From NCBI GenBank assembly GCA_965649765.1, contig OZ287754.1, positions 35,774,001 to 35,838,000 on the forward strand: a stretch of DNA of 64,000 nucleotides. The letters run 5' to 3'. This document shows positions 2,201-63,853 of the stretch, in pieces; the stretch's first letter is position 1, and each line of letters starts with the position of its first letter. The DNA is from Bispira polyomma. Lineage: Eukaryota. Below the pieces are notes generated by a model, which was given only the letters and a program-made list of their open reading frames with translations, searched no databases and had not been told where the DNA came from. Made by a program: the position numbers and the translations under genes.

Positions 2201-5200
2201 TAGTTGGGTCATTTACAGTACTTCCGTGACTGTGGAAAGCGAAGGTTCATTTCTCAGTGGATTTGTCTTTCATGAATGTTAAATAAAAAATTTAGCCTCC
2301 ATACCCCTCTCAAAAGTACAGGCTAAATCCGTAAGAGCCATTTTGAATATTATCTTTTTAATGATTTGGCCAACAATGCTGCATAGTACATCATTTCTGG
2401 GACTGTTTCGGTCAAGGAATTCATGTTTGATGTTAATTTGATGATTTAACCTATTTTTGACCTTAAAATTTAAAATGGCTGCCAATTTTTAACTCAGAAA
2501 ACTCAACTTTGCCTTCTGCTACACTAGCTTTTACCATGCCCACAGAAACCTGATGCGAGGTCACTGCCAGTGATGATATGGAGAGGTATGATAATATCTG
2601 AGAGCATTTAATGACAGTTAATAAATGAATGTTTACGTTTAATCCACAGATCACCTCAGATTTGTTGTGAAACATAAGCAGTTTGGACTCTAGTTCAATT
2701 GTTACAGTGTAGTTCCAAGTCCCCGCTTGGCAAAAGGAGACATCAGTATTGTGTCAGCTTCTGGATGCTTGAAGACATAATCCCCACTTGCCACACCTGT
2801 GGTCAGGTTGGTTGATGTTGCTCCCTCACAGTTTATGATTCCCTCCTGCACTTTAACAACTTGTGCTTTCAACTGTTCCTTCACAAGCTTCAGCTTCTGC
2901 AGTCTGACACTGTTCCTTAAATTTACCATAAGTTTGTTGAACTCAACAGCTCCTGAAAATGTGTCCTTTGGCTGGGGGAAAACATTTGGGATGTGTGGAT
3001 ATTTAGCTGACTGGAGATCATGCTCATCATCCTTGATGCTGAAGGGAAGGTCTTTGATAAGAATGATGAGGCTTGCGATGATAAAACAGATCTTATCCAG
3101 GTAATCATTCAAGCGGTACTCTGATCTGTCCTGCTTCCTAGTCTTGCGGTTCTTAGGGGTGGGGGTAGCTAGCTGCCAGATAAGCCCGTGTCCACGAGGC
3201 TGATATAATCCTGTGGTTGGTCAGTAACTGTGTCTAAGGGTAAACAGCTTGCTTTTCACGGTCTTGCACATTGACCTATCTACAATGCAGATTGAGAGGC
3301 ACTCCTCAGTGACTGTCCTCTCAAGGGGTGATCCCAGTTTGATCAAGCCTGATCCCTCCACAAGTTTAACCAGAGCTACATGTCTCGATCTATCCATATG
3401 AGCAACCTTCATAGATACACCAGGTGGTGCACAGATTTGTTCTGATTGTTCTGATTTGTCAACCTGAGCTTGACCAGGGGCCGCGGTGGCCTAGTGGTTA
3501 GCAAGCACTGCACTTCACAATCACTGGTCTCTCACCTCTGGGCGGCGTGAGTTCGAATCCCATCGATGCCTATGTGGGAAAGGTGATAGTTCCCTACTGT
3601 GGGCCGCTGGTTTCAGTGCAGAACCTTGATCAACTGTATGCAGTGTTTCCTCCAGCGTTTCCAACTACCCGTGCCAATATAACCTAAACAGGTACTAGAG
3701 TGGACGTTAAATATCCAAATTCAAATTCATTTCAAAACCTGAGCTTGACCATCTGCAATTGTAGTCTTTAATTCACATCCCAAATCTGGTCAGGCAAATA
3801 GGCCATCCTGTAGTGACCTCAATGCAGGTGAGGAGATGTCAAAGGACTCAGCTTCAATATCATTCATGCATGTCTGCAAGTCCTGAACTGCTTGCTTATC
3901 TTTCTTCATTCTTGCTGGCTGCTTTTTGTGGTGACAGTGGTACTTGAGGTTCTGTTTCACATTAATCCTCATCCTTGCGATGTTGTTTACATTCCTTGTT
4001 ATTGAGAACAGTTGCTTCTCATTCTAAAGAATCTGAAGCCACCCTGAAGCTTAAGTTTAAAATTCAGATTCATACCAGTTTCTATCCAAAAATATAGTGG
4101 TTGGCAGGAGTATGGTAGCCCTGTCATTGACTGGTTGAAGTGATTGTCAAAGAAGGACGTTTGTTCCTGTGACAGTGAAGACAGCAAAACCCAATAATCA
4201 GGCAACCACCTTCCATAGACATTATTATTCTATGCCATCAGTCCAGGCAACATGTTGTATATTGATGAAAGGTACTAACGGCCATTTCTATCATTGCATG
4301 CATCAATACTTTGGACAAGAGAATCCAGCATCTCTAGGAATAAAATTCAAAGGTCCCCTAAGGTCCGCTGGGTTTCTTGTAAACGTTATTGATCAGTTTC
4401 TCCATGTCATCATCATTCTGAAGATCAGTGTAAACTCCCTGTAGAGCATCATGTGTAATAGTCAGTTAACGTTTTTCTTGATATTCTGTTATAGTTCCTC
4501 ATGATCAAGAATTTCTCTTTCTGGATAAGAGCCTCTCTCCACATCCCGCCTTTTATGCTTTCCTTGTTGTGCTTGGTTCAACATACCCCTCCACTATTAC
4601 CTCTGCAGTAACCAGAGTGTTTGCCATGCCAGAGCCTTTGAATCTATATTTCATAGCGTAGATGCAGGACATGTGCTAGTGAAATGCACCAATAATTGGT
4701 ATAAGCAGCATGATCGTCTTGCAGGTGTGCTTGCAACGAGAAAAGGAGAATGGAATATTCTTCCTGTGCATAGCAGCCACAAATTTAACTATGATGTAAT
4801 ACACCACTGACTTTTTGGTAGTTCAGGATAGGTTGTATGGCAGTAGGGCTTACTCTTGTTGGGTGATGCATTGCAGAAGTACTGGGCACTAATCTATTAA
4901 TGTCAGGCATCTTCCAAAGCCCAACACCATTGACAAAATTGTTAAAACTGTAGTCCGTTTCCAATGCAAACTCGTGATCGGAGGGACGTAAAAGAAATCT
5001 ATGAAGAGATGGGCCTTTAGGTTACTTCTAAAGCCAGAGAGGGGTTCCTAGGGTCTTATATTTGTTGGTAAATTATTCAATAGGGTAGGTGCTGCAACAG
5101 AGAAGGCATAGGATCCAATCCATTTACTGGTTCTGGTATCAGAGACTGAAATATCTACATGTCAAATTTATTCAACTACATACAATTTGTTCAGTTATCT

Positions 5201-6513: not shown

Positions 6514-6785
6514 GGGGGCCGCAGTGGCCTAGTGGTTAGCAAGTATTGCGCTTTACAATCACTGGTTTTTCACCTCTGGGATTGGCTGGCGTGGGTTCCA
6601 CTCCTGTCAATGCCTATGTGGTAAAGGTTGTAGTTCCTTAGTGTGGGACGCTGGTCTTAGTGCAGAATCTTGATCAACTGTTTGCAGTGTTTCCTCCAGC
6701 TTTTTCAACTACCCGCTCCAATATAATCTATATAGATACTAGAGTGGACGTTAAATATCCCAAATTCAAATTAAAAAAAAAAAAT
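6514..6785 (+). mobile_element. tRNA-derived SINE copy 2 (more diverged)
   Basis: Colinear with 3477-3735 and ends in an A-rich tail. Confidence 0.88.
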
Positions 6786-13282: not shown

Positions 13283-14272
13283 ATGCCTCCTAAAAAGGAG
13301 TTCTCTTGTAGTGCTTGGAAAGACATGAATGGCCTGTGGGAAAGCGTTGTCATTTTCAAATGGAGGACAGTGTTGCCGAGGATGTGACCCTGTTGATTCT
13401 TTTACTTCAGGTAATATGTCTGATTCAGTATCCGGTCAAATTCTGCAGCAGTTACAAGCTATGAATAAAAAATTGGAGAGCATGGATCAACGGGTACAGG
13501 TCACGGAGGCGGCACTGTGCTCACCCAGCGCCAATAAGGCATGTATGACTTCTCAAACCAATGTTAGTGTTGCTAGTGTATCTGAGCCAGCAGTAGTTGA
13601 AGCTGTGGTCCCCTCATTAGAGTTCTTACGTACAAACGAAAACCTGTAGTCGCAGGTCGATCAGCGTTTAGTCCAGCTACAACAACTCAATGAACCAGCA
13701 CGAGGTAAACTTAAGTCCCAACGAGGTGGTGTCGAGGCCCCTATAAAAAAGCATGTTGATCGGCCACAGAATTTGGTCCTATCCGGTGTAAAAAAGACTA
13801 GGCCACTTATGACGACTTTTCACTACTTCAGTTTACCTCGGGATTCGTGAGATGTATACAAGAGCCAAAAATGCCGGAAGTACGGGAGGCAATGTCTCGC
13901 AAACCTCATGGATGATGCCCATGATTTTTCTTGGAAAACCGCTAAAGCTTCTCATGCCATTTTACTTACAAACATGGAGGTAGATCGTTTAAAATGGACG
14001 GATGTGGAAAAGGTGAACCGTGTCCGCAGGACCCACGCACAACGCCATGTTGCCCCGAGTGTGAATGGTTTTGGCTCGTCAAAACAAGTAATAACAAAGG
14101 TAAAAGTCAAGTTAAAACCCAAGGGGTCGTCTGTAGGTTCTTCCAAGAAGGAACGTGTAAATTCAATGCCAGCCAATGTACTTCTGGGCAACTTTTTAAA
14201 CATTGTTGTGAGAACTGCGATGGCTCTCATCAAACCAAGTTATGTACAAAGAAAGGCGTTGCAAAAAACTAA
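13283..14272 (+). pseudogene. Y3 gag-like ORF (disrupted)
   Basis: VVPSLEFLR, KSQRGG, DDAHDFSWKTAKASHA, and C-terminal CRFFQEGTC...HCCENCDGSH. Confidence 0.75.
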
Positions 14273-14552
14273 GTGGCCACTGCAGAAATGCAGTGGATGT
14301 AAAAAATTCAAAAACCAAAGTGTATTCAAGAAAAGTGTATAACTCCCAGTTTAAGGATTTTCAGTTATGTAAAAAATCTAGACATTCAATGTGTTTTAGG
14401 GCGGGCCAGTCCTATAGGGATGCTGTGGCAAAAGGAAAATGTTATTCAAAAAATTATCAACCTCCTGTTGACGGTATTGTGGAAACACACACTATGCTTA
14501 GTACCAGTAAAACTAAAACAAAGGCTTTCACAAATCCTTTAAATAAAAGTGA

Positions 14553-16550
14553 GTGGGTTCAAGTGAGGGGAACGGGAATATTGCTGTGTGTGGCCCATGT
14601 GTGACCACTACAGAGAAAAAACGTGTCCAAAAGGTCAATGTTAACAAAGTGGGCTGTAGAACCCCTGAAAATGTAAACAAAGCTATGTTAACTGATTGTG
14701 ATGACAAGTATGCCTTGGATGTACCAAGACTCCCTGATAAAAGGCAGAAACTGAATAAAGCCAAAAATCGTGAGACTTATAAATTGTGGGATGTCCAGAA
14801 CCAGGGGAAGTTTGGGTTTATCCCGCTTAGCCACTGGGGTGTCCCTGTGTTAGACAACTCTGGCAACAAGTTGCCTGCACACTCACTAACCCTGCATGAA
14901 CATCTGCAATTGGATGGGCGACCTAATTATAGGGGCCTCCAATTACCAGTGACCTCCCAGTTAAAAGCCTCTGTATGGGCGGGTTACTTGCAGAATTACT
15001 GGGATTGGGAGCTACCACTTCTTATCAAGTTCGGATTTCCCCTCGATTGTGATCTACAATCTGAATTTAAGTCGAAGATAAATAACCACTCGTCGGCTTG
15101 CCAATACCCGGAACACGTATCTCACTACTTGTTAGAGGAGTGTAATTTGGGGGCCATGTATGGGCCTTATGCTGCTCCACCACTTGAGAGTTTGCATACC
15201 TCCCCCTTCATGACCCGGGATAAATCAAGTTCAAATAAACGTAGGGTTATAATTTATCTGAGTTGGCCCCATGGCCTGTCAGTTAATTCGGCTGTCCATT
15301 CAGACTCATATTTAGTCAAAGAATTTTTACTCACCTATCCCTCAATTAATACCATAACATCCCAAGTTATAGCCATGGGCAGAGGTTCATTACTGTTTAA
15401 AGCAGATATTAGTCGCCCTTTCCATCATGTGACTATGGATCCGAAAGATATAAACCTATTGGGACTGTATTGGGATGGGTACTATGTAGACGGGTCGCTC
15501 CCGTTCGGATACAAGCACGGATCCGCTATTTTTCAACGTATTTCGGATGGCATACGTTATATCATGAAGGGTCAAGGCCACAACATAATAAATTACATCG
15601 ACGACCTATTATGTTGCTCGACGTCCACAAAAATACATAAAGCCTATCACCGACTGCAGGAACTATTGTCTGAACTAGGCCTCACATTGAGTGAGAAAAA
15701 GCTTGTTCCCCCTGCAACCTGTGTAACGCGTCTAGGTATTGATATTGACACCACTAACTTTACTACTTCAATTCCACCTGAGAAGCTAGTCCACATACAA
15801 ACTATGTCTAATACTTGGGCAAACAAAAAATATACAAAGCGAGAATTACAATGTCTACTTGGGTCACTTTTGTATGTGTCCAAGTGTGTAAAGTACTCTA
15901 GGTTTTTCCTCAACAGGATGCTGCAACTTCTCAGAAGCAACCATAAAAGTAACTCGTTCAAAATTTCCCCTGAGTTTGGACAAGATCTAAATTGGTTCAG
16001 GACCTTTTTGAAGAAATACAATGGCGTTTTCTTCATTTACCACCAACCAATTACTGCTATGATTGAGTTGGATGCTTGTTTGACTGGGATAGGGGGAGTT
16101 TATGGAAACCAAGTATATTCTTTGCCAATACCTCTAGAAATGCAACAACAAAACATTGCATTTTTAGAAATGTTGGACATTCTTTTTGCCCTGAGAATGT
16201 GGGGCCATCAGTGGAAAGATCATAGAGTGCTCATAAAGTGTGATAATCAGGCGGTAGTAAGTGTTCTTACAAATGGGCGAACTCGAGATCCTGACTTGGC
16301 ATTGTGTTCTAGAAATATATTTATGATGGCCAGCCACTTTGATGTCGATATACAAGTGATTCATATATTAGGTGAACATAATACAACTGCTAACTTGCTG
16401 TCCAGGTGGACCAACTCAACACAGGACAATAGTCGTTTACATACTCTTGTAGGTCAAGTCCTGCGGTGTCCTGTAGATGAAAAGCATTTGTACCTTGATA
16501 AAAAATATATGACGTTGAATACTCTGCAAATGTTCTTATTTTCTAGATAG
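14553..16550 (+). CDS. Y3 pol: reverse transcriptase plus RNase H (665-aa open frame; true 5' start probably upstream via frameshift)
   Basis: LPFGYKHG, NYIDD, DACLTG, LEM, CDN, NTTANLLSR. Confidence 0.9.
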   Translation: MGSSEGNGNIAVCGPCVTTTEKKRVQKVNVNKVGCRTPENVNKAMLTDCDDKYALDVPRLPDKRQKLNKAKNRETYKLWDVQNQGKFGFIPLSHWGVPVLDNSGNKLPAHSLTLHEHLQLDGRPNYRGLQLPVTSQLKASVWAGYLQNYWDWELPLLIKFGFPLDCDLQSEFKSKINNHSSACQYPEHVSHYLLEECNLGAMYGPYAAPPLESLHTSPFMTRDKSSSNKRRVIIYLSWPHGLSVNSAVHSDSYLVKEFLLTYPSINTITSQVIAMGRGSLLFKADISRPFHHVTMDPKDINLLGLYWDGYYVDGSLPFGYKHGSAIFQRISDGIRYIMKGQGHNIINYIDDLLCCSTSTKIHKAYHRLQELLSELGLTLSEKKLVPPATCVTRLGIDIDTTNFTTSIPPEKLVHIQTMSNTWANKKYTKRELQCLLGSLLYVSKCVKYSRFFLNRMLQLLRSNHKSNSFKISPEFGQDLNWFRTFLKKYNGVFFIYHQPITAMIELDACLTGIGGVYGNQVYSLPIPLEMQQQNIAFLEMLDILFALRMWGHQWKDHRVLIKCDNQAVVSVLTNGRTRDPDLALCSRNIFMMASHFDVDIQVIHILGEHNTTANLLSRWTNSTQDNSRLHTLVGQVLRCPVDEKHLYLDKKYMTLNTLQMFLFSR

Positions 16551-17438
16551 AATACCTGTGCGACAGTTACTGTACAAGAATGCTACACAAAAATTGCAAC
16601 TTGCCTTCTCTAGATCTACTGAGAGGTCTTACACTGCCATGTATCGACTGTACTTGGCCTTTGCTGCCTTTATGGACTTGCCTTTACACCAGGTGACTGT
16701 GTTTGACCTTTTGTCTTTTTTAGAACTTTTTCAATGTAATAATGTCAAACCAGCCCATATGGCTAACTACCTTTCTGCGATAAAAGCAAAGTCCATTCTG
16801 CACAACGTCCAAGTTCATGCCTTCAGTGACCCCCGCATTGCTTATTTTCAAAAGGCTGCCCAAAGGACCTGCTCTCTTACATATAAAACTAAAATTATTG
16901 ATATACCAATGCTACATAATATAATAGAGTTGTGCAACACTACCTATATATATGGGTCTGATTTACAAGGACTTGTACCTGTTAAGTTATTTCTCATTTC
17001 TTTGGTTGTCAAACCTAATGCCACACTCTGTTTCACAATTTTCCCCTCTTAAACATCTAGCAATAGCAGATGTAATGATACATCAAGATAAAGCAGTTTT
17101 ACTCATAAAATGGTCTAAGACCATGCAGTCAAATAACCAAATTAAGCTTATTACTGTTTCACGTCTTCTGGGCTCATCCTTATGCCCAGTCGGGTCACTG
17201 GAGGACATGTTGGCACTCACTCTCTCTGGGGATAATTCCTCCCTCTTCCAAATTAAAATTGACCAAAAATGGGTTCCATTGATAGATTCAAAAGTACGTC
17301 GTCACTTTAGTAGCATTCTCGGTTGCAATTACACCAGTCTGGACTTACCTTCCACGCTTTCCGTCGTTCAGGTGCAACTTTTGCTTTTAATCACAATGTT
17401 AGCATTCAAAACATCCAACAACATGGCACCTGGACTAC
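16547..17438 (+). pseudogene. Y3 tyrosine recombinase (frameshifted, truncated)
   Basis: MANYLSAIK, IKWSKTMQ, FHAFRRSG, HGTW. Confidence 0.85.
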
Positions 17439-17984
17439 TGTGAAATATCAGTTATACCCATTGTAATACTTGTAATGATAATTTTCCATTACTTAAATTC
17501 AGCGATTGCTGAACTGTAATATTAGTAATTAAATTCTCAACTGTAATTGAAGTAATTAAATTCTCAAGTAACTATTACATAAGTAAGCTATTTCTGTAAC
17601 TGTTAACTATTACTGTAAATTTTGTATTTCGTGTTAACAGAATATATTATAATGCTGACGTGTAATTAACTTAACTTCATTTGGGATTGTAAGGTCACTT
17701 GCGTAAGGGCCTAAGGGCCTCCTCAAGTAACAAAGACAATAAACTTTCGTGCTAAGGTGACCTTACTCTAAATTTAGGCTAAAACATTTATTTAAGGTGA
17801 CCTTAAGTCACTTTAAGTTTGTGCCAAAGTTTAGTTTTCACTTACTGGTGACCTTAGTAGCCCTGTACATAAGTAGCCTAACATGTAGTCTAACAATAAA
17901 TGTTTTACCCGCATTCTGTGTATACCTATCTGTCTTCTTAATCTTGACCTCTGACCTGTTGCCGGGGAAATGAGCTCTCTGTCA
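17439..17984 (+). repeat. Unclassified LTR-like segment (TG...CA, AATAAA)
   Basis: Interrupts the Y3 YR at TG. AATAAA...CCGCATTC and AAGGTGACC motifs are shared with 39795-40207 and 45611-45951. No TSD. Confidence 0.35.
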
Positions 17985-20529: not shown

Positions 20530-20739
20530 TGTTGTGGTCACGTCAGTGGAAAAAAAATTATATACATTATGGTAAACTTTCCCTCCTAGAAATTGTTTAC
20601 TCAGTAACACCTATCACAGTCTAGGAGACTTAAGTCACACAACCAATCACCTTCCTTCTTAAATGAACCCCTTCCCGCTTTTTCTATGATATTGGCATTA
20701 ATTAGTTGTAAGTCTAGGAAGCAACACTCTGAAAGATTT
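20530..20739 (+). repeat. Y4 repeat A1
   Basis: Matches 26097-26325 except that it lacks 19 bp (TGCTAGTATAGCATGACAA). Confidence 0.95.
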
Positions 20740-20916
20740 AATGTCTAGGCCCATGAGCGGCCATATTGGATTTGGCAATATTTCTAAATAATACAAGCTT
20801 ATTTTACAAGTTCTTATCTCTTTTACATCTTTTTAATAAGTGTTTTTAGTGCCTTTTTACTGTGTCTATATTATTGTGTCACTTGTGGAGCATTTACGCC
20901 TGGAGAAATCAGCACC

Positions 20917-22269
20917 ATGGGAAGAGGTAAAAAGAGACATCCCGCTGTAAACACAGTTATGTGCTCGAGGTGTGACATATCTCACACTCGTCCAGTCGGG
21001 AATAGGTGCACTAGGACCACTGAACCGTTGATTCCAGGGGAAGATTCATCACCCAACCGGGATCTCTGCACAGATAACTTTGACGGTGACACCGCGAGCA
21101 GCGTTTCTGAGAAAGTAAGTTCAGACCACTTTTATCGTGATATGCACACCAGACAGCAAGCTATGATGCAAACCCTCCTTACCACAGTTTCCAAACTACA
21201 GGAGGACGTGTCTGACCTCAAGAAGGGGCGAACCGACACCCCTCTCCCTCAGTTACTACCCGCTACTCCAGCTGTCGTGTCACCTCACCACACATCTGCT
21301 ACACTACTTCACGTACCAGCTCACAACACGCAGATCCTTCCAGACCATACCTACAGGCACCTCACACAACCTGTGTTGCATAGTGTACCTAGCAGTACTC
21401 ACCCACATAGAGACGTCCATCACAACGTTTGCTCACCTCACGTCAACCCGTCCCACGTAACACCCCCTTTGCAGCCTCAACCACAGGCAGCAGCCAACGT
21501 AGACAATTATGGTCAGGGTGTTACTCAGCGCGCGTTACAGGATGCCATCCTACCCACACCGGATATCTTAAGACAGTCGTCGACGATACAAAATGAAGTG
21601 TCACTACGCCTGGCGAGGTACGAGGCTTGGGCGGCTAACGAGAGCGTACAAGGTAAGCTCACTTCAAAGAAAAAATCTGGTCGTTATAATGTGTCTGACA
21701 TTTGTGTTACTGACCCGATGCAACGATGGCCAAATGAGGCCTGCTTTTCAGGCGTTAATAAGAAGCGGGTCTCGTTTGACGACCTCAGCGTATCTCAATT
21801 TGCAGCCGGACAAATCCAAAATATCTTAGACGTACAGAATCCGACTATCTCTCGGGCGATGCTCTCGCAACTTGCCGACACACTAAAGGACGCCTCCAAC
21901 ATATCCTGGCCAATTGCACGGGGGGCGTACGCATGCAATATGCATGATGTGGAGGAGGGCCGTCTGACTTGGTTAAATGAAACTAAATGGACTTTAAATA
22001 GGTTGTCATACTCTCAGGCCCTTGTCTCCAACCACACCACTCCAAGCGCCTCTTCCACCATGTCAACTACCAACAAGCCGGAAATGCCCTGTAGACATTT
22101 CCAAAAAGATCAATGCCAGCATCAAAAAGACCATGAGGGGACGAATACCCTTTTTAAACACATTTGTGCTAACTGCTATCGGTTGAATAAAAAATCCAAC
22201 CCTCACCCGGAGTCCAAATGCTATAAACTCCATGGACGACCTTCTACTACAGCAACTACTACCCAATAG
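20917..22269 (+). CDS. Y4 gag-like protein (450 aa)
   Basis: N-terminal CSRCDISHTRPVGNRC and C-terminal CRHFQKDQC..H / HICANC..HPESKC zinc-finger-like motifs. Confidence 0.88.
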   Translation: MGRGKKRHPAVNTVMCSRCDISHTRPVGNRCTRTTEPLIPGEDSSPNRDLCTDNFDGDTASSVSEKVSSDHFYRDMHTRQQAMMQTLLTTVSKLQEDVSDLKKGRTDTPLPQLLPATPAVVSPHHTSATLLHVPAHNTQILPDHTYRHLTQPVLHSVPSSTHPHRDVHHNVCSPHVNPSHVTPPLQPQPQAAANVDNYGQGVTQRALQDAILPTPDILRQSSTIQNEVSLRLARYEAWAANESVQGKLTSKKKSGRYNVSDICVTDPMQRWPNEACFSGVNKKRVSFDDLSVSQFAAGQIQNILDVQNPTISRAMLSQLADTLKDASNISWPIARGAYACNMHDVEEGRLTWLNETKWTLNRLSYSQALVSNHTTPSASSTMSTTNKPEMPCRHFQKDQCQHQKDHEGTNTLFKHICANCYRLNKKSNPHPESKCYKLHGRPSTTATTTQ

Positions 22270-24900
22270 GACCACGGACTGCCTGCAGTCACCACCACCA
22301 GCAGTTATGACTTGAATCTGGATAACGTACATAGTGCGAGTCAGAGAAACTTAGAGAATTATCTTAAGCAAATTACTAGGGTGGACGATAATAAGAACCA
22401 TATTTTAGAAAACACTTTCAGCATTAGTACTAGGCGTAGTCATTGTGATCAATTACCTGTAGATGACAAGGCTAATCCATCACAGTTTTTATCTAGTTAT
22501 GGCGACTCACGTGTTGGCTGTTTATCAGCTAAAAGTGACAGTTCTAAATTTATTGTTAATCCAGATCTTAGTGACTGTGATGTAACGGCTTATGAAGACA
22601 ATGATACAGAACTCACGTCTCCATTGTGTGATATGTATTTCAGTAACAGTTGTAATGTTCAGAATGTTACCAATTTATGTTACTTAGTGTGTCGTAGTAA
22701 TGCATGTCTTTCAGGTGTCTATATATGTAATTATGTACAAGGACACTGGGTATTCAAAAAGTCCATAATTTCACTGGATTATATATGGCCAATAACCTAC
22801 TCAGGCACTGGTCCCATTCCAGGTCTCAGTAACAACTTCCTACAGCACAAGAAAAAACACAATAAACTACCAACAAAAGACATCACACACACACGCACCA
22901 CACTAGGTAGCACATTATACTATACAGACATCATTGACAGTATATGTAAGCGAGATATTCAGAAACACGTATACACACAGACTGCAGTTACCAACTCTGA
23001 AGCTGCCCCAGGCAGCACACATATCAATAATGTACACACTTCATTTGCACTCATGCAATCTGGATGTAATGAGGACATTATAACAGAGGAAGTTTTAACA
23101 AAACATCCCTTAGACAGCAATAGTGATTATCACATGATAGAGGACTCCCCTATTAAAAACCACAAAACTTATGGCTACATTCCACATAAGCTTAACAGCT
23201 TTGTATTCACAGGTCCTGACAAGCAAGAAGTCGACATCAACTCTTATGAGAAACTGGTACAGGTGGCCAACGTTGTAAAATCCACTAAAGTATCAAACTA
23301 CAGGTTAGCTCGTATACCACTTAAGAGTAACCTTAACGTAAAAAAGTGGCAAGAATACTTAGTTGATTACCCTGACAAGATTATTCTGCAGTACGTCCAA
23401 TTTGGCTTCCCCATATCTTTATATGAGAGACATAGATTACAAGTCACCAATGTCAAAAATCACTATTCAGCCAAAGCCTTTCCTCAAGCAATAGATGAGT
23501 ACTTCATTACTGAGGTTAGCAGAGGCACCATAGTTGGTCCAGTAAATAGCGATATACACCCAGACTTACACTGTTCCCCACTCCTTACAGTTCCTAAGGA
23601 CATTGACCAACGTAGACTGGTATTAAACTTATCTCATCCTACAGGTCAGTCTGTGAATGACTGTACTGTAAAAACCAAATATGACCATATCGACTTTAAC
23701 TTGAGACTACCAACCATTGATCTTATAACTTCACATATTTTGAGTATTGGAACTAAGGCTACCTTAGCAAAGGTGGACGTGGCCCACGTTTTTCGAAATT
23801 TAAGAATAGACCCCTACGATTGCCTCAAACTCGGATATTTTTGGAGAAACAACTATTACATCGATTTAAGTTTAACTTTCGGCTTAACTCACGGCACGCT
23901 GGCGTTTATGATGGCATCAGATTGTATTACTTATATAATGAAACAAAAAGGCTTTACGGTCTTTAACTACATCGATGATTTCATACTCGTAGAGTCGGAA
24001 GATAAGGCAGCCTTAGCTTACAGCACTTTGCAACAAATCCTAGTAGATTTAGGTCTCCCCATTAATGCCAAGAAATTAGTTCCCCCTAGTAAACGTGTCA
24101 CTTGCATGGGCATTATAATTGACATCGATAATAAAACCCTCAGTATTGACGAGGACAAACTGAATTCCATATATGATACTTGCGTCGAGTTTAAATACCT
24201 AAAGAAGGTACGTAAACAAAAATACCAGTCCTTACTGGGAAAGTTGTTATACATACACTGTTGTATTAAACCTTCCCGCATTTTTATGAATAGGATGTTA
24301 ACATTACTCCGAGAATCTACCAGTAGTAATACAGTCACGCTGACTAAGGACTTCCATCAAGACTTAGCATGGTTTGTACGTTTTCTCATTCAATTCAACG
24401 GCACCACCACATTTAATCATGTCAATAAACCTCATGATGTCTGCCTACAAGTCGACGCTTGTTTATCCGGGATAGGCGGTATCTGGAACGGCAACGTCTT
24501 TAAAACTCCCCTCCCCTCTTTCATGACTCACACATTGTCCATAGTACATTTCGAGATGATAAGCATAGTAATTGCGTTAAAACTGTGGGGTCACGAGTGG
24601 ATAAATCAAAAGATCAAAGTTCAATCTGATAACATGGCTGTGGTGGCTGTAGTGCAGTCATCAAAAACTAGAGACAATTATCTAGGCTTATGCCTAAGGA
24701 ACATCTGGCAAATTTGCGCTGAAAAAAATATTGACCTTGTTATTAATCACATCCCTGGTAAGGAAAACATCATCGCTGACGCCCTTTCGCGATGGTATGA
24801 ACTTGAACATTATGGTAGCCATATCCGACAGACTATTATTGACAGTTTTTCCATATATGACATACCCCTTGAATTTTTTACACTGGATACTTATATATAA
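22270..24900 (+). CDS. Y4 pol (RT plus RNase H), in frame with gag after a single TAG
   Basis: KVDVAHVFRNLRIDP, LTFGLTHG, NYIDD, DACLSG, SDNM, ADALSR. No stop between 22270 and 24897. Confidence 0.93.
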   Translation, partial: DHGLPAVTTTSSYDLNLDNVHSASQRNLENYLKQITRVDDNKNHILENTFSISTRRSHCDQLPVDDKANPSQFLSSYGDSRVGCLSAKSDSSKFIVNPDLSDCDVTAYEDNDTELTSPLCDMYFSNSCNVQNVTNLCYLVCRSNACLSGVYICNYVQGHWVFKKSIISLDYIWPITYSGTGPIPGLSNNFLQHKKKHNKLPTKDITHTRTTLGSTLYYTDIIDSICKRDIQKHVYTQTAVTNSEAAPGSTHINNVHTSFALMQSGCNEDIITEEVLTKHPLDSNSDYHMIEDSPIKNHKTYGYIPHKLNSFVFTGPDKQEVDINSYEKLVQVANVVKSTKVSNYRLARIPLKSNLNVKKWQEYLVDYPDKIILQYVQFGFPISLYERHRLQVTNVKNHYSAKAFPQAIDEYFITEVSRGTIVGPVNSDIHPDLHCSPLLTVPKDIDQRRLVLNLSHPTGQSVNDCTVKTKYDHIDFNLRLPTIDLITSHILSIGTKATLAKVDVAHVFRNLRIDPYDCLKLGYFWRNNYYIDLSLTFGLTHGTLAFMMASDCITYIMKQKGFTVFNYIDDFILVESEDKAALAYSTLQQILVDLGLPINAKKLVPPSKRVTCMGIIIDIDNKTLSIDEDKLNSIYDTCVEFKYLKKVRKQKYQSLLGKLLYIHCCIKPSRIFMNRMLTLLRESTSSNTVTLTKDFHQDLAWFVRFLIQFNGTTTFNHVNKPHDVCLQVDACLSGIGGIWNGNVFKTPLPSFMTHTLSIVHFEMISIVIALKLWGHEWINQKIKVQSDNMAVVAVVQSSKTRDNYLGLCLRNIWQICAEKNIDLVINHIPGKENIIADALSRWYELEHYGSHIRQTIIDSFSIYDIPLEFFTLDTYI

Positions 24901-24906
24901 TTTCAG

Positions 24907-25887
24907 GCACCTCAGACTCAGCTGGTCCACTGATACAGGGTGCTTTTAGACGACTCAGACAAAGCCATAGACCCAGAACACAGAGACAATATGACAGCCA
25001 ATTTAGATTTTTTCTCAGCTTTACAGTCTACTACAACTTACAGCACACATTTAGCTTTAACAGCATCATTGCATTTCTAGAATTTCTCACACAAACAAAC
25101 ATTTCCTATAAAGTTATCTGTAACTACCTATCGGCTGTGAGGTATAATGCAAAACTCTTGAATATCCAAAACACAGGGCTATACGACCCTAGGTTAGCAC
25201 TATACACCAGATCACTTGAGTTAACCTCCAAGTATAAACCTCAAATTAAAGGGGTCTTTGATTTGAACCAACTATGTCAGATCTCACAAACCTGCGAATC
25301 TTTACCATGTCCTGAGTTATATAGAACTGCATTCCTTTTTGCCTTTTTTGGTTTTCTTAGGAGTTCCAACCTTACCACAACCTCAGGCAGTCCATTTGAT
25401 CCAACTAGACACCTGACCAGGGCTGACGTATTATTCGCCCCCCCCAGGTATTCACCTTATTTTAAAATGGACTAAGACTAATCAGAGCAGATCCAACCCA
25501 GATATTATACAATTACCCCAGTTGACAAACTCTTGGCTATGCCCTGTCAGAGCAGCCACAGCTTTATTTCAGAAATACCCCATGGATCCACGGGGTCCAT
25601 TACTAGCAAACCCCACAGACAGAGGCACCTGCCTCTCAGATACAAAACTTAGAACCACATTGAAGAACATTTTGATTCACTTAAACATACCAAGGGAAGG
25701 TCACTCATTCCACTGCTTCAGGCGTTCTGGAGCCTCACTTGCCTTCAATTCAAACGTAAAACTTCAGCACATACAAAAACATGGTTGTTGGAAATCAGAT
25801 GCTGTTTGGTCCTACCTTCAAGCCACGTCACACGCGGCTTCCATTATTCCTTCTACTTTTGCTTCTATTGTCTCTTCTACTTTCTAA
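24907..25887 (+). CDS. Y4 tyrosine recombinase (probable spliced second exon; +1 C in the C8 run at 25438-25445)
   Basis: FFGFLRSSNL, KWTK, HCFRRSG, HGCWKSDAVWSY give the R-K-HxxR-H/W-Y catalytic set. Confidence 0.88.
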
Positions 25888-25894
25888 TTTGGCT

Positions 25895-26098
25895 TTGGCA
25901 TTTTTAAAATTTTACCTTAAATTTTACTTTGTACAGATGTAAATAGAGACAGTAGTTAGAAATAATAAATATATCCCAAACAGCATCTGGTTACCATTTC
26001 TAAAAACCTAACCCTTGTAGGTCATAACACTGAACTTCGAACTACAAGGTCAATTATAAGATTACAGTCTACTTAGCTCCACACATTTTTAGCTACTG
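25895..26098 (+). repeat. Y4 repeat B1
   Basis: 204 bp; appears identical to 26770-26973 by eye. Confidence 0.95.
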
Positions 26099-26325
26099 TT
26101 GTGGTCACTGCTAGTATAGCATGACAAGTCAGTGGAAAAAAAATTATATACATTATGGTAAACTTTCCCTCCTAGAAATTGTTTACTCAGTAACACCTAT
26201 CACAGTCTAGGAGACTTAAGTCACACAACCAATCACCTTCCTTCTTAAATGAACCCCTTCCCGCTTTTTCTATGATATTGGCATTAATTAGTTGTAAGTC
26301 TAGGAAGCAACACTCTGAAAGATTT
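26097..26325 (+). repeat. Y4 repeat A2
   Basis: Direct repeat of A1. Confidence 0.95.
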
Positions 26326-26769
26326 CCCAACCCTCCTCCCAAAATTTCTATTCTCATACATCACATTTAATTCTGCCTTGGGTCAACGGAGCTCAGAGAT
26401 CATGTGGAGAGTCCTGTCTCTTAATCCTCCCCTGAGTTCACGCTAGGGTTCCAGGGTTGAATAAGAGCTCTGAGAGGCAGGACTGTCTGCAGGCGAATAG
26501 CATCTCGAGCTTCCATTCCCAGAGCAGAATACATTAGGAATTATAATAGTAATTCTAGCAGTTAGCGTTTTATGTATATTTTATCATGTAAACTTTTAAG
26601 TAAAACTCTTGTGTTAAATTTGTTGCCTCACAATGGCTCTTCAACATCACCAGACATATGACGTTTTATATTGCAACTGGTCATGTTGTTATTTCGGGTC
26701 TTACTGTACCCTAGTATCTACTTAGTATACCTTTGTTATTGTCATGGTACCTTTATTTTTACAGCCATA

Positions 26770-26973
26770 TTGGCATTTTTAAAATTTTACCTTAAATTTT
26801 ACTTTGTACAGATGTAAATAGAGACAGTAGTTAGAAATAATAAATATATCCCAAACAGCATCTGGTTACCATTTCTAAAAACCTAACCCTTGTAGGTCAT
26901 AACACTGAACTTCGAACTACAAGGTCAATTATAAGATTACAGTCTACTTAGCTCCACACATTTTTAGCTACTG
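26770..26973 (+). repeat. Y4 repeat B2
   Basis: Direct repeat of B1. Confidence 0.95.
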
Positions 26974-36887: not shown

Positions 36888-38053
36888 CTAATTATTAACT
36901 GCTCCTTCTGCCTGTTTTGTCGAATTCTCCCGATAGCATTTGAATTCCGGATGTGTTGCTTCTTTCTTGAGAACTGTGGCACAATGCCAGCATTGATGGC
37001 GATATTGGCCGAGGTCCGCACGATGAGAACATTTGCCTGGATTGAATAGCTTGCAAATTGTTCGCCCTTGACTTGAATTATGGGAGTTGGAGGTGGAATT
37101 GGCTGAGAAAGCCGTGTTTCCATTCGCCATCGCCGTCTGGGAGGCACTAATACGATTTAGTGCCCACTGAGTTGTGTCACTCCATCCCAAGCGCACAGCT
37201 TTGACCTCATGCATACTCATGGACCACGCAGTGCGCACAACTTCCCATGGCAGAGAGGCGACATCCTGAAGAGAGAATATGACTTGTTCTACCATCGCCT
37301 TCATAACTACCGGATCTGAGACCTGAAGGGCATTTGCTAATTGTCCTGCAGCCCACTGGGGGAGCGACAAGTCGTCATACATAGGCCGTTTGCGAGTCGC
37401 CCCGCCGACCCAGCCTTCGTTGGCCCATCTAAACTTAGGTTCTGCTGACGCGATGTCCATGTTATTAAACCGCCCTGATTTCTGTCGCTTACCTTGGGCT
37501 AGGGCACACTAGGCTTGCGCCTCATACTGTGCGAGAGCAGATTGGGAAGCTGAAGATTCACCCCAGTCACAGAGATTGTGTTAAGTGTCCCGCCCTGGTT
37601 ACCGGTGAATGGCCCTGTAGGTTGGATCTGACTCGACTGCACGTGGGTTGCCACCTTTGAAGCTTCACGGGCTTCCATCTGATTAAACCTCCGAGTAATC
37701 TGAGAGTTTGACTCCTCCAGCCGTCAAAGTACCGACATCATGAGGGTCATCTCACTACTTGCCGTCGGTGCGGTGGAAACAGGGAAATCCCGTTGGCTGA
37801 ATTGCTCTGGACAGTCCGAGAGTAAATGAGCCGTGGCTGTAGCTTGGGCCTGTGTACCCGTTGCGAGTATTGGTGACGCAAATTGTGAATTGTCGCGTTG
37901 ATAACATGGCAGATTAAGACTGTTAAGTATACTGTCTGATACCTGTTCCACCTGGACTGTTTTCCTTGTTGGTCGTCCTTTCCCCGTACTCTTGCTACTC
38001 TGTCTCATGGTTTTCTTTGCCACGTCCGAAGGTGTCTTCTTGGTACGTCCCAT
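36888..38053 (-). pseudogene. Y6 gag-like (disrupted)
   Basis: QGKRQKSGRFN, YDDLSLPQWAAGQL, CKLFNPGKC..HQCWHC..HPEFKC. Confidence 0.8.
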
Positions 38054-39473: not shown

Positions 39474-39724
39474 TTTTTCAATTTGGATGTTTAACGTCCA
39501 CTCTAATACCTGTTTAGGTTATATTGGGATGGGTAGTTAGAAACGCTGGAGGAAACACTGCATACAGTTGATCAAGGTTCTGCACTGAAACCAGCGGTCC
39601 ACAGTAAGGAACTACCACCTTTCCCACATAGGCATCAACGGGATTCGAACTCACGCCGCCCAGAGGTAAGAGACCAGTGATTGTGAAGCACAATGCTTGC
39701 TAACCACCAGGCCAACGCGGCCCC
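39474..39724 (-). mobile_element. tRNA-derived SINE copy 3
   Basis: Reverse complement of copy 1. TSD TTTGTCTTCGGT at 39462-39473 and 39728-39739. Confidence 0.92.
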
Positions 39725-39794
39725 CCATTTGTCTTCGGTAGCAGATATTAATTTTTTCTGTGCAACTGGAAACAAAAAAAACAAAAAGTATTTC

Positions 39795-43905: not shown

Positions 43906-44722
43906 ATTCATGTAGCAATATAATAGAATCTTATTTTTCAATCACAAACCAGGTAATGCTCAGATAGAATTAGTTGCCTGTTTTACCGGAATAGGGTTAT
44001 TTATTAGAATCAAGTCCATAAACTTGCTGTATCGGCTGAAATGACAGAAGACAATATTGCATCATTAGAAATGATAAATATACTGGTCACATTGAAACTG
44101 TGGGCTAAGGCTTGGCAAGGGTTGAGAGTCTTGTTCAAATGTGACAACCAGGCTGTTGTCAGCGTTTTAACAAGGGGGCGAACCAACAATCCTCTTTTGG
44201 CCACCTACATGCAAAATATATATATGTGGGCAAGACGGTTTGACATAGAAATTAGAGTCATACATATACTTGGGGCTAACAATAATGTGGCTGATTTGCT
44301 GTCTCGCTGGGACAAAACCAAGAATAACGAACAGCCGAACAGCTTTTGCATAAATGGGCGGAGTCTGTAACATGACTTTTCACTGATAAATTGCTTCTAG
44401 AAGTAGACAGCAGTATATAAGTTACAGGTATATATAGTTTTATGTTGTAGAAAGAATCCAATGGATAAATTGCTGACCCAGATGGCTTGCTAGAGGTTGC
44501 ATTCTGCATTCACTTCCTCTACTGCAAGGGCTTATGAGAGTATGTTCAGGCTTTTTCTAGCTTTTGGGGTCTTTATGGACTGACCCCCCCCCCCCACTCA
44601 GGTGACCGTTTTAAATATTATGTCATATCTAGAGTTTCTCAATTTCAATACTGTATCTGCCTCTCAAGATGCCAACCATCTATCAGCAGTTAAAGCACAA
44701 TGCATTTTATTTCATATTAACA

Positions 44723-44974
44723 GGGGCCGCGGTGGCCTAGTGGTTAGCAAGCATTGCGCTTCACAATCACTGGTCTCTCACCTCTGGGGGCGTGAGTTCG
44801 AATCCCGTCCATGCCTATGTGGGAAAGGTGGTAGCTCCTTACTGGGGGCCGTTGGTTTCAGTGCAGAACCTTGATCAACTGTATGCAGTGTTTCCTCCAG
44901 CGTTTCCAACCACCCGTCCCAATATAACCTAAACAGGTACTAGAGTGGATGTTAAATATCCAAATTAAAAAAAA
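44723..44974 (+). mobile_element. tRNA-derived SINE copy 4, in Y7 YR
   Basis: TSD TTCATATTAACA at 44711-44722 and 44975-44986. Confidence 0.92.
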
Positions 44975-58274: not shown

Positions 58275-61200
58275 GTGTAAGTTACTGCGGGTGTAACAGC
58301 ATGACAAGTCAGTCGCAAAAAGTACTTTACTGTATATTTATCCACCACTGGTGTTGATTGACTTATGTCCAGTCAGGGTTAAGCTAGAGGAAGGTCTCTC
58401 TACTTATGTATTTACTGACCTAGCAACCAATCAGAGCTGGTCTAAGGGAAGGTTTTCCCACCTTTTTCTCATTCTTGCCATTTAATATGACCAAAGTGTC
58501 AACAAGTGATATTTTTTATTATTTTAGCAGCCATATTGGAAAAACGGAATATATAAAGTTTATTTAAGTTTTAAAGTTTTATCTGTTTTAGTGGTTTTAA
58601 AGGTATTTAAAAAACAGCAGGCCATGATGGACACTATCTTACTGTGCACTCGACAGAAAGACGTGTCTGAGCTAAAATCTAAGGATAGCGAACAAACAAT
58701 TTGTGAGGAAGTCACAGCAACCGCGGTGACCACGGCTCCAGAGGACAATTTGCAAAGTAATGTAAGTCATAACCTAGATTATGTCACTGGCCCACCTCAA
58801 TTTCCACATAAACGTATTCGGCTCACTACTACACCGAACCAACCCGCACTATCTCAGCTGCCTAGGCAGACGGTACCCTGGAAACAGTACGACTGGCACC
58901 AGGACCCTTCTACATCTGGTAACCCGTACAAAGTCGCACCTGCACTGAGGGATCCTCACTGGGGCATGCTTAATGCGACAATCAATCCAGAGAGGCAGAG
59001 TCACCCTACACCTGAACAACAGTAGACACAACACTGGACACAAGACACAGCTCGGGACATACACCCAACTACCGACATGCTATGAAACTCAGTTTTAATT
59101 CAAAGTGAAGTCAATCACAGACTTGCTTAATATGAAGCCATGGCAACGGACAACATACTGCACGGTAAGCTCTATTCTAAATAAAAGTTGGGACGATTTA
59201 ATACATCTGAAAAGTGTACCACAGATCCACAGTATAGGTGGCCAAATAAAAGTTGTATGGTGGGGTTATCTAGAAAACGTTCTCAGTATGACGATTTAAC
59301 CATATCGCAATTCGTGTCAGTTCACATCCAAAACATGCTGGAGGTAAGGAGCGCAAGTACAGGAGAGCCATGCTAAGACAGTTAGGGGACACGCTGCGCG
59401 ATGCCAGCAATATCTTGTGGCAGGTTGCAAAGGCTACATATGCCAGCAATATGCACGACTTGGAGGAGGGAAAACTCACACGGGCAGACAAAACTAAATG
59501 GAGCATGAACCAGATCTCATACTCTCGGGCTTCCATGTCAGCCTCAACCACCATTAATGCAACGAAGACCCGCATACCCTGTAGGCATTATCAGAAAAAC
59601 CAGTGTTCACATTGCGGGGATCACCAAAATGGTACGACTAGTTTTAAACATATCTGTGCAAATTGTTTTAGGATCAATAAGAGAGAAAATGCTCATCCAA
59701 AGATAAAATGTTTTAAGCTGAATGGGAAACCTCAAATGGGGGGATCAGCAAGACAATAGGACAGGGAACTGCTTATAGAAACAACTGTTAGCGGGGGGAG
59801 TGTTAACTGTTAAAGTGGTAACTGTAGCAATGATATGTTTGACGAGAACAATGACAATGAGAATAGTATAGATAACAAATTGTTTGTTTTAGGAACAGAC
59901 AATGAAATTAATTATTTAGACTATTTGAGTGAAAATAACTCAAGTGATGTGACAAGTAACACATTATGCAGCACTAGTACCAGTAACAAGGCAGTGCTAC
60001 TAAATGCCAGTATAACAGACAATGATAACCCGACATGGTTAACAGTTCATGTATATAGTAGTTGTAGTGTGAGTTACAATACTAATCCATTATATTACTT
60101 AATGTGTAAAAGTGATACTAACATTAATGGAGTATATGAATTATGTTATAATAATGTATTTCAGGTGACATTCACAAAAACAAACTATGACACAAAAGAC
60201 GTATGGCCTTTATCATACTACAAACAAACAGACGTGTTAGCACATTATACAAAATACACAGGTACTGACACACATACAGACAAAAGCAATTACACAAAGA
60301 AACGCATTGGGACAAAACACGGGAAAACAACACATGTAAGGACAAAAATAGGACAAGCAAAAAATTACATTGATATAATAGACAAACTGTGTGATGACAG
60401 TGGTAATAGTCTCTTTGCACATAACTGTTAACCAAGTACTAATGTAGAATTGGCACCCAGCCATAAACAACAGCTAGAAGACAAAACAATTGAAAACACA
60501 GAACATACGACCAGGACGGTTAACATTGAGAAAGCACAATTATATGACAACATAATTGACACAGTACTCACCAGACGGACAGCAGATAGTTTCCCAATGG
60601 CCAATCTGTATGGGAGTACTGATTTGTATAAGGTGAATCTAGACGACAATAACTACCTATTAGACAATTTAACTGAAGAACACAAAATCGACAATAAGGA
60701 CAGTGACTGCGACTTAGCTGGTAATCCAGTAATGCAATATGTATTTATCCCTCGAGATAATACAACTTTTAAGTTTATAGGTCCAAGTAGAGCCCCAGTT
60801 GATATTAAGGACTACGCTACATTGATAGAAATAGCTGACATAATTAAACAAACAGGTCAGCCAAATTACCAAAATGCACGAATCCCTATTACTATGGATC
60901 TAAATATAGACAAATGGAAACAATATTTATGTCACTATCCAGATCAGCAATTGCTGCAGTATTGGGAATATGGCTTCCCCATATCACTTTGTGAAAGAAC
61001 TCGTTTGAAAATACAAAAGGTGATAAACCATTACTCGGCTTTACAATTCCCTGAATACATTGACAAATATTTTTATAAAGAGTTGAATAATGGTACTATT
61101 AGTGGTCCTATTAGTGCATTATGAAATGATGACGTACACTTCTCTCCATTATTGACTTGTCCAAAGGACGATGGTAACAGAAGGCTCATTTTAAATTTAT

Positions 61201-63853
61201 CACACCCAAGTGGTGAATCAGTCAATGACTGTACCATAAAAGGCACATAGGATAACACTACATTTGACCTAAAATTACCTACAATTGACCAGATTGTTGA
61301 CCATATTAAACATATTGGCCCCACAGCAAGAATCGCGAAGGTGGACGTAGCCCACACTTTCAGAAATTTAAGGGTGGATCCTTTTGATTGCCTTAAACTC
61401 GGTTACAATTGGAAAAACAAATTCTACATTGATGTAACGCTTGCGTTCGTGTTAACATGCAGCACGGCCTTATTTATGAGAACCTCAGACGTGATAACAT
61501 ATATTATGAAAGCAAACAACTTTAAGGTCTTAAACTACATAGATGATTTTGTCATTGTAGAGTCAAAAGAAAAGGCCATCTTAGCTTTTGAATTTTTGAA
61601 AAAGATACTCGCTGACCTTGGTTTCCCAATAAACAAGAACAAATCTGCACCCAGCACACGCGTAACATGTATTGGCATAACCATCGATGTAGATGAAAAA
61701 ACCCTGAGTATTGATAAAGACAAACTTAACTCAATACACGAAACGTGTGTAGAATTTATTCCTCTCCTTAATATTCGGAAAAACAAATCTCAATCCTTGC
61801 TGGGAAAACCCCTTTATATACACAGGTGCATTACGCCAGCAAGGATCTTCATGAAATGAATGTTAGCAATATTGAGAATCTCAACTAGCCAGGAAACAAT
61901 ACAGTTGACAGAAGACTTTAAGAGGGACTTAAACTGGTTTCTTAATTTTTTATCTGACTACGATGGTACTACAAAATACCAAAGTGATGACATAGGACAG
62001 AATATTTCTATGCAAGTAGACGCGTGTCTAGAAGGCATTTGGGGAGTGTTAGGTAGTGACGTATTTACAGCCATGTTGCCTTTATGTATCAAACAATTAC
62101 TTTCTATAGTCCACTTTGAGATGATAAGCCTCCTGGTAGCTATTCGACTGTGGAGACATAAGTTAAAGGATAAAACAGTATAAATTCAATCAGACAATGC
62201 TGCAGTTGTTTCTGTGGTGCAGTCTTCTAAGACTAGGGACCTATACTTAAGTACATGTTTAAGGAACTTGTGGTTAGTATGTGCTAAACACAACATAACT
62301 TTAACCATAAAACACATAAAAAGAACATAATAGCAGACGTGCTTTCTAGGTGGCATAAATTAGGGTCACATAGCTATGAAATGAAAAGTGAAATTGAGAA
62401 TAACTTTATCATGAATGAGGTGGACGTTTTTAAATGAACAATGAAATCTAATTACAGGTAACTCAACAGCAGTCACAACCCTGATTTCTGAAGCTATGAT
62501 GAAGATTCGTGACAGTCAACAACCAAGGACACGTTGACAATTCGAAAGACAATTCAGACTCTACATGGCCTTCATGGTCTACCATAACTTGGAGGATCAC
62601 TTCTCTTCTACTTTCACTACTTGCTTTCATGAAATACTTGCACCTGGTGAATATTTCCAGTGAAGTGATTAATAATTACATAGCTGCAATCAGACATTCA
62701 TGCAAATTATTACACATACAAAATAATTATTGCAGAATTGGGATGTATCAGAAATCCTTGGCAATTAATTCGAGATTCTCACCTAAACCAAAAGGCAGCT
62801 TAGATATTTACCAATCAGAGCAAGTATCAAAACTATGTGAAACTTTGGCTTTCCCAGAGTCATACAGAACTGAGATATTGTTCGCTTTCTTTGGTTTCTT
62901 AAGAATCTGAAACTTAACGCCTTCAAGCTTAAATACTTTTGACCCTACTAGGCACCTAAATAGGGCTGATGTATTATTTGCCGACCCAGGGATCCACCTA
63001 GTACTTAAGTGGTCGAAGACCAATCAAACCAGAGAGAATGCAAACATAATCCAGCTTCGGTATCTCAAAAACTCTTGGCTCTGCCCAGTGGCATCAGCTT
63101 AAGCTCTTTTTAGAAAGTACCCATTGCCTCCACTGTGCCCTTCACTGGCAAACCCGGGGTACAAGAGTAAATGCAGTTCAGATTCAAAATTAAGAGAGGC
63201 ATTAAGGTCTCTACTAATAAAAGTGGGTATCCCCCTTTAAGGTCACAGCTGGGGGCCGCGGTGGCCTAGTGGTTAGCAAGCATTGCGCTTCACAATCACT
63301 GGTCTCTCACCTTGAGGAGGCGTGAGTTTGACTCCTGTCGATGCCTATGTGGGAAAGGTGGTAGTTCCTCACTGTGGGCCGCTGGTTTCAGTGCATAACC
63401 TTGATCAACTGTATGCAGTGTTTCCTCCAGCGTTTCCAACTGCCCATCCCAATATAACCTAAACAGGTACTAGAGTGGACGTTAAATATGACAATTCAAA
63501 TTCAAGGTCACAATAATCACTGTCTGCGAAGATCAAGGGCTTCATTGGCTTTTAATACAAATGACAAATTACAATATATTGGGTGCTGGAAATCGGACAC
63601 CATATGGAATTACCTCTAATCGACTTCTCGTGCTGCTTCCATAATACCCCAAACATTTGCGGCTATAATCCCTCCTACTTAAATTCTTTTTTGACTTTGG
63701 CATTCATAAAAATTTACTTCATTTTAAATTTGTATGTACAGTTAAAGATTTAAACCATGTAAATAAAATTCTCCAAACATGTTTTAAATCATAGTTATCA
63801 CTGGCGTTGCTTTACACCAGTCCTTGCAACTTTAAAACGTCTGACAGCTACTG
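58275..63853 (+). mobile_element. Y8: degraded YR retrotransposon, Y4 subfamily
   Basis: A-like start AGCATGACAAGTCAGT, gag to 59759, pol 59760-62451, YR 62458-63680, and a B-like tail ending AGCTACTG as in Y4. Confidence 0.9.
63251..63503 (+). mobile_element. tRNA-derived SINE copy 5, in Y8 YR
   Basis: TSD core AAGGTCACA at 63239-63247 and 63504-63512. Confidence 0.9.

Follow-up and report, generated by a model that had tools for sequence, protein, structure and literature searches.

The stretch of DNA analysed here, referred to as the window (64,000 nt of Bispira polyomma contig OZ287754.1), carries on its forward strand a decayed tyrosine-recombinase retrotransposon of Ngaro type (DIRS order). 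Its gag (13283..14272) is broken by indels, with a last frame (13946-14272) that encodes a C-terminal Cys/His zinc finger and ends in ...GVAKN, i.e. Lys-Asn-stop, and with a candidate phase-1 splice donor, G/GTAAAC, at 13705..13710. The RT/RNase H frame (14553..16550), which contains YIDD and is followed by no methyltransferase domain, lies in another frame beyond 14552..14553, the point where about 178 nt of close sisters are missing. A U-rich phase-1 splice acceptor (16533..16546) precedes the tyrosine recombinase (16547..17466), which is split over three frames in this copy. For the ORF order gag, RT/RNase H, tyrosine recombinase, RVT_1 matched above the cut-off (E 1.7e-10) and a HAFRR motif was seen; RNase H-like and Phage_integrase matches were weak (E 0.0003-0.002) and below the cut-off. 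No Pfam match to a methyltransferase domain was obtained in three pol frames examined, and pol ends directly after RNase H. Split direct repeats of the order A1-B1-A2-B2 were found in L130 and L138, two elements of the same clade, and in the in-frame-stop element of the window; those of L130 (2263-2425/7827-7989 and 7152-7451/8560-8859) are 100% identical. In the window copy itself and in its close sisters L148 and L149, split direct or terminal repeats were not detected. The accessible parts of PMC3783388, PMC3266345 and PMC9210276 define Ngaro elements by the lack of a methyltransferase and by split direct repeats, and the split repeats of the young relatives together with the missing methyltransferase domain therefore fit Ngaro, an assignment made by these defining features. 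A DIRS1-like or PAT identity is not supported, as neither a methyltransferase domain nor inverted terminal repeats (DIRS1) were found.

The window contains a further, young Ngaro element at 20539-26973, whose split direct repeats are 100% identical and whose gag and pol frames are open, as well as an interspersed repeat of about 250 nt that occurs five times in both orientations (3477-3729, 6521-6773, 39476-39725, 44722-44974 and 63252-63504). Genome-wide, 13 of the 30 best gag hits of the L038 family (L070-L099) reside less than 3 Mb from a contig end, and tandem arrays of 36-67 nt flank L038, L049, L143 and L144. Targeting of L038-family insertion to subtelomeric or satellite DNA is possible.

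At the end of gag, positions 14263-14296 read AAAAAAC TAAGTGG CCACTGCA GAAA TGCAGTGG, a string that none of 100 shuffles reproduced. The preliminary description had seen a slippery heptamer, a 7-nt spacer and an 8-bp stem at this place, and we read the same arrangement: the heptamer A_AAA_AAC (14263..14269) sits in the register of the last gag frame (0-frame), the spacer (14270..14276) opens with the gag stop TAA (14270-14272), and the hairpin CCACTGCA-GAAA-TGCAGTGG (14277..14296) constitutes a candidate stimulator. This hairpin is the dominant fold of 14270-14300, with -14.2 kcal/mol and a z of -4.4 (0 of 200 shuffles); over 141 nt the fold z is only -0.84, compared to -4.4 over the local 31 nt. 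A scan of both strands for the general layout of a heptamer, 5-9 nt and a perfect 8-bp stem gave one occurrence in the window and on average 0.3 in each of 20 shuffled windows, so that the motif by itself is just modestly unusual and proves little. The case for the signal is instead carried by its position at the gag stop and by its conservation. Pseudoknot stimulators are common in programmed -1 ribosomal frameshifting (PRF) signals, though not obligatory; among nine copies examined no conserved pseudoknot partner of the loop was found, only a simple hairpin. Rfam gave no family match to the signal up to E 5. With a spacer of 6-7 nt, a stem of 7-9 bp across lineages and one compensatory pair, the arrangement is that of canonical -1 PRF signals.

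The -1 frame, which had been described as open from 14242 to 14604, is indeed open, though its stop-to-stop extent is 14212..14604 and 14242 marks an internal AUG (14242..14244), located 7 codons upstream of the heptamer and arising from gag Leu-Cys codons. From 14263 onwards this frame encodes a conserved transframe peptide, KKLxxHCxxAV ... VYN ... SYRD. Over window positions 14263-14440 and their homologues, the peptide keeps HCxxAV, RxVYN, FKDFKL, SYRD or SYAQVV and, further on, NRFxxL, and these motifs lie in an otherwise unalignable linker.

In the host assembly (1.035 billion bases in 75 contigs), the heptamer-stop-stem pattern gave 112 exact matches, while the reversed control gave 0. 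From 110 loci, 92 distinct ones were obtained, of which 88 in 37 clusters were kept and four whose stem core differed at more than 3 positions were dropped. In these 88 copies, a set partly found or anchored via the motif itself, AAAAAAC is present in 80, the gag stop comes directly after the heptamer or one codon later in 85 (TGA 37, TAA 31, TAG 17), and the six core stem pairs are retained in 83 to 88. The outer stem pair switches between lineages, being C-G in 68 and G-C in 17 copies. Two-sided, compensatory change was observed at one stem pair only, the stem core being invariant, partly because of protein coding (His-Cys..Ala-Val). A GNRA loop had also been noted before, which holds for the GAAA of the window copy and not for the family: G..A ends of a tetraloop occur in 45 of the 88 copies, and since the loop varies among copies and lineages we rejected it as a required feature.

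Lineage C, recovered by a search with the gag finger and not with the motif (20 of 150 hits taken, chosen for long open frames), reads AAAAAAC GAR TRR GGCACTGC-N6-GCAGTGCC, with a loop of six bases and an identical 8-nt distance to the core, in elements whose Gag is just 36% identical to that of L130. Heptamer and stem, whose lack of conservation among family copies had been named as one observation that would overturn the initial reading, are kept across copies and lineages. A TAA directly before the heptamer is found in 8 of the 88 copies (L049, L071, L082, L083, L089, L098, L139 and L147), which belong to more than one subfamily and in part still have an open pol (L049, 832 codons); it may mark a mutation hot spot or a Gag-only sublineage. 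In a set of viral contigs the pattern matched twice, neither time at a gag end or near an RT, and no protein relatives were found; we treated both matches as chance.

The heptamer begins at the wobble position of a codon that varies (GCA, TCA, GTA or ACA), and this base is nevertheless A in 84 of 88 copies; the Lys and Asn codons of the heptamer are AAA in 87 and AAC in 83; in the RT, AAG and AAT are freely used as well (265/125 and 132/196). All four wobble bases of the stem are fixed in 12 of 12 representatives, compared to none of 23 four-fold and none of 26 two-fold RT wobble sites (0/49 together) in the same comparison. The constraint on heptamer and stem thus acts at the nucleotide level. 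Pol might alternatively be reached by splicing: the 3' arm of the stem contains a CAG (14291-14293), a possible acceptor that lies in phase with the gag donor, so that splicing from the phase-1 donor in gag could join Gag to Pol as an N-terminal fusion, similar to what is proposed below for the recombinase. This CAG falls in phase 1 of the -1 frame in all 12 representatives and is present in 84 of 88 copies, and the gag donor is conserved in these elements. However, pairing with CTG already dictates the CAG, the 14 nt upstream of it contain little U (0.19 compared to 0.56 at 19 recombinase acceptors), and another AG precedes it within 15 nt in 78 of 88 copies. Splicing would furthermore account neither for the heptamer's fixed wobble bases nor for the 5' arm, the compensatory stem pair and the fixed distance, and we regard it as very unlikely to be the route to pol.

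The position of pol relative to the site was followed in intact and decayed copies. Within 40 codons downstream of the site, the -1 frame contains a stop in 7 of 80 copies, compared to 67 for frame 0 and all 80 for the +1 frame. Among long loci (n=66), the -1 frame stays open for 100 codons or more in 47 and for 400 or more in 19; frame 0 reaches at least 100 codons in a single locus and at least 400 in none, and the +1 frame provides no such case. It had been asked whether pol is continuous with the -1 frame, and in the intact natural copies L038, L049, L130 and L146 it is, with 831-859 open -1 codons that extend through RT/RNase H to its end. L200-L202 leave almost no alternative place to shift, since the -1 frame is shut one codon ahead of the heptamer and gag terminates one codon behind it. 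In a separate observation, an indel near the gag end of L042/L079, L084, L085 and L087 fuses gag with the -1 frame, with 402-1040 codons open.

The window copy itself departs from this layout at about 14552, where it lacks a segment of 175-179 nt that most close sisters have (178 nt in L051, L056, L057 and L059). In L051, where the segment is present, the distance from the heptamer to a conserved Trp codon amounts to 702 nt, which is a -1 layout. Of 12 close sisters in this old family, five keep pol in the -1 frame from end to end, and in the other seven pol is shifted by private indels at differing places. A presumably mutational shift near 14560-14600 had been postulated for this copy; its mutational nature is borne out by the private 178-nt deletion, whose position is about 14552 instead. 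A second programmed shift near 14560-14600 was rejected on the same ground, the deletion being private to the window copy.

The AUG at 14242 raises the question of whether pol could be reached by termination-restart or leaky initiation at a -1-frame AUG near the gag stop, aided by the hairpin. Such an AUG is found between -20 and +19 codons in 47 of 80 copies, including the window copy and 27 of 27 copies of the largest cluster, and one subfamily of lineage C shows an AUGA overlap. By clusters, however, it is present in only 8 of 30, and it is missing from young families with identical terminal repeats (L130, L146 and L138). The first downstream Met varies in position from codon 4 to codon 164, with conserved peptide motifs upstream of these Mets, and restart does not account for the heptamer. 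We therefore consider this route highly improbable.

A different junction is shown by the relatives of two other window elements: a single in-frame TAG is present in 26 of 30 loci related to the element at 22267 and in 28 of 30 related to that at 10886. Within the window, the single in-frame TAG between gag and pol is found in sister elements at 22267-22269, 36888-36890 (minus strand) and 59757-59759, and the same layout occurs in L100-L129 and L152-L179. This agrees with the earlier proposal that sister lineages use an in-frame stop in place of a frameshift, and the layout suggests that the stop works by read-through. Among metagenome relatives, four of six display an in-frame TGA, one is without gag and one is unresolved; one metagenome locus, L209 (264-3821), combines a short gag-like frame, an in-frame TGA and an RT frame of 1029 codons with no usual gag-core match. 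To map the recoding mode, an RT/RNase H tree of 45 unnamed rows was used, unrooted and without outgroup (4 short rows omitted, 3 unlabelled). Both modes separate on it: one branch (100/99) splits 23 frameshift-type from 19 in-frame rows, and one recoding change is needed, compared to a mean of 14.1 after shuffling.

In the sister lineages an RCTGY motif that resembles the core of the frameshift stem recurs in different frames, at a distance of 8-15 nt downstream of the stop. This recurrence could indicate that the inverted repeat is a DNA element, or a packaging or protein-binding RNA element such as a recombinase or Gag site, whose position at the junction is incidental, all the more since the core CACTGC-N6-GCAGTG is invariant, beyond what pairing needs, between lineages with 36% identical Gag. 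Yet the in-frame-stop lineages, which have the same recombinase and repeats, are without the palindrome, and the palindrome goes together with the -1 layout and with the heptamer, from which it is exactly 8 nt away. Such an element would moreover give pol no expression route, and we judge it the least probable of the alternatives weighed here.

A U-rich phase-1 acceptor precedes the recombinase in 19 of 19 elements of the frameshift and in-frame-stop lineages, so that the splice design proposed earlier as common to sister lineages is found as sequence signals. Donor and acceptor pair at 13705 and 16546 in the window and at 2910 and 6145 in L130, and the recombinase is without a start codon. 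Gag donor and recombinase acceptor may thus form a candidate Gag-recombinase splice. Three contig sets of unrecorded kind, compared with L130, contained no read joining the gag donor with one or the other acceptor, an outcome that counts neither for nor against splicing.

Beyond this genome, the signal might be traced by the Gag C-terminus. A terminus close to the finger is found in 61 of 120 Gag homologues, and in 54 of the 61 it consists of KN, with or without one further residue. In the top 150 cluster representatives, the Lys-Asn ending is shared by 33 of 72, compared to 5.8 in tail shuffles, with a ranking that is biased because the search profile itself ended in KN. Lys-Asn-ending Gags fall in three gag clades, in a gag tree with weak deep nodes. 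Judged from protein sequences, the Lys-Asn end may serve as a proxy footprint of the signal in other assemblies.

Nucleotide-level conservation thus covers heptamer, stop, spacer and stem, and the coding sequence of pol continues from there in the -1 frame. We propose that the site is very probably a programmed -1 ribosomal frameshift signal making Gag-Pol in one Ngaro-type clade. By analogy to established -1 frameshifting, most ribosomes would stop at the gag stop, while a minority would pause at the hairpin, with tRNA-Lys and tRNA-Asn on A_AAA_AAC, slip back by one base and read through the long linker into RT/RNase H. Frameshifting would consequently set the ratio of Gag to Gag-Pol, and, on the unrooted tree, the frameshift clade and the read-through-type lineages would be separated by one change of recoding mode. 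A point against this reading is the simplicity of the candidate stimulator, a hairpin of just 8 bp at about -14 kcal/mol.

The signal shares heptamer class, spacer length, 3' stem, a gag stop inside the spacer and pol in the -1 frame with gag-pol signals of retroviruses and LTR elements, which combine an X_XXY_YYZ heptamer with a spacer and a stem-loop or pseudoknot. HIV-1 represents the stem-loop type of frameshift signal, and A_AAA_AAC is used at MMTV gag-pro. In contrast to these systems, the element described here belongs to the tyrosine-recombinase retrotransposons and has neither protease nor DDE integrase, and its stem is a short 8-bp hairpin with a variable loop. In the portion of PMC5009743 at hand, 28 of 51 animal LTR retroelements are given as having pol in the -1 frame, and A_AAA_AAC is listed among the most shifty heptamers for mammalian ribosomes. 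The one-frame, single-stop layout of gammaretroviral and Tca2-type gag-stop-pol read-through resembles the sister lineages (TAG) and four of six metagenome relatives (TGA), and is not that of the frameshift clade. MuLV is an example of this gammaretroviral read-through. For Tca2, gag-stop-pol read-through is reported in the part of PMC2194720 consulted.

With the Ngaro superfamily the element shares a gag with C-terminal Cys/His finger, RT/RNase H without methyltransferase, a tyrosine recombinase and, in its young relatives, split direct repeats A1-B1-A2-B2. Where Ngaro elements are described in the sections seen of PMC3783388, PMC3266345 and PMC9210276, overlapping ORFs are given and no gag-pol recoding signal. 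Frameshifting was proposed by Poulter and Butler 2015, as quoted in the available part of PMC13003380, at the overlap of RT/RH and recombinase; the signal reported here lies at gag-pol instead, and the recombinase has splice signals. For gag-pol slippery sites or read-through in DIRS-order elements, we found no description in the accessible portions of PMC8547959, PMC3266345, PMC6681497, PMC3783388, PMC13003380, PMC9210276, PMC5009743, PMC12440569 and bioRxiv 2022.06.16.496473, and the frameshifting review PMC5009743 does not use the word 'DIRS' within its first 300,000 characters; a mention of the junction may exist in Poulter and Butler 2015, Goodwin and Poulter 2004 (the founding Ngaro paper), supplements or Repbase records. 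The mechanism itself is canonical, and what would be new is its presence in this class of elements.

A wider picture, which we offer tentatively and hold to be rather unlikely in its entirety, would be a retrovirus-like programme of Ngaro elements run from one RNA, combining Gag-Pol recoding with Gag-recombinase splicing. Recoding mode would have switched more than once, A_AAA_AAC frameshifting would be widespread (the Lys-Asn footprint representing three gag clades), and the CACTGC/GCAGTG core would be a sequence-specific, possibly protein-bound stimulator descended from the post-stop element of the sister lineages.

The RT frame of DIRS-order elements has no fixed start codon, and the precise, deeply conserved 34-nt signal offers a probable route for its translation in the frameshift clade. 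Sister lineages in one genome would solve the same problem by a frameshift or by a leaky stop, as different genera of retroviruses do. For annotators, a Gag ending in Lys-Asn is a simple marker, and frameshift-type copies should not be counted as broken by a frameshift.
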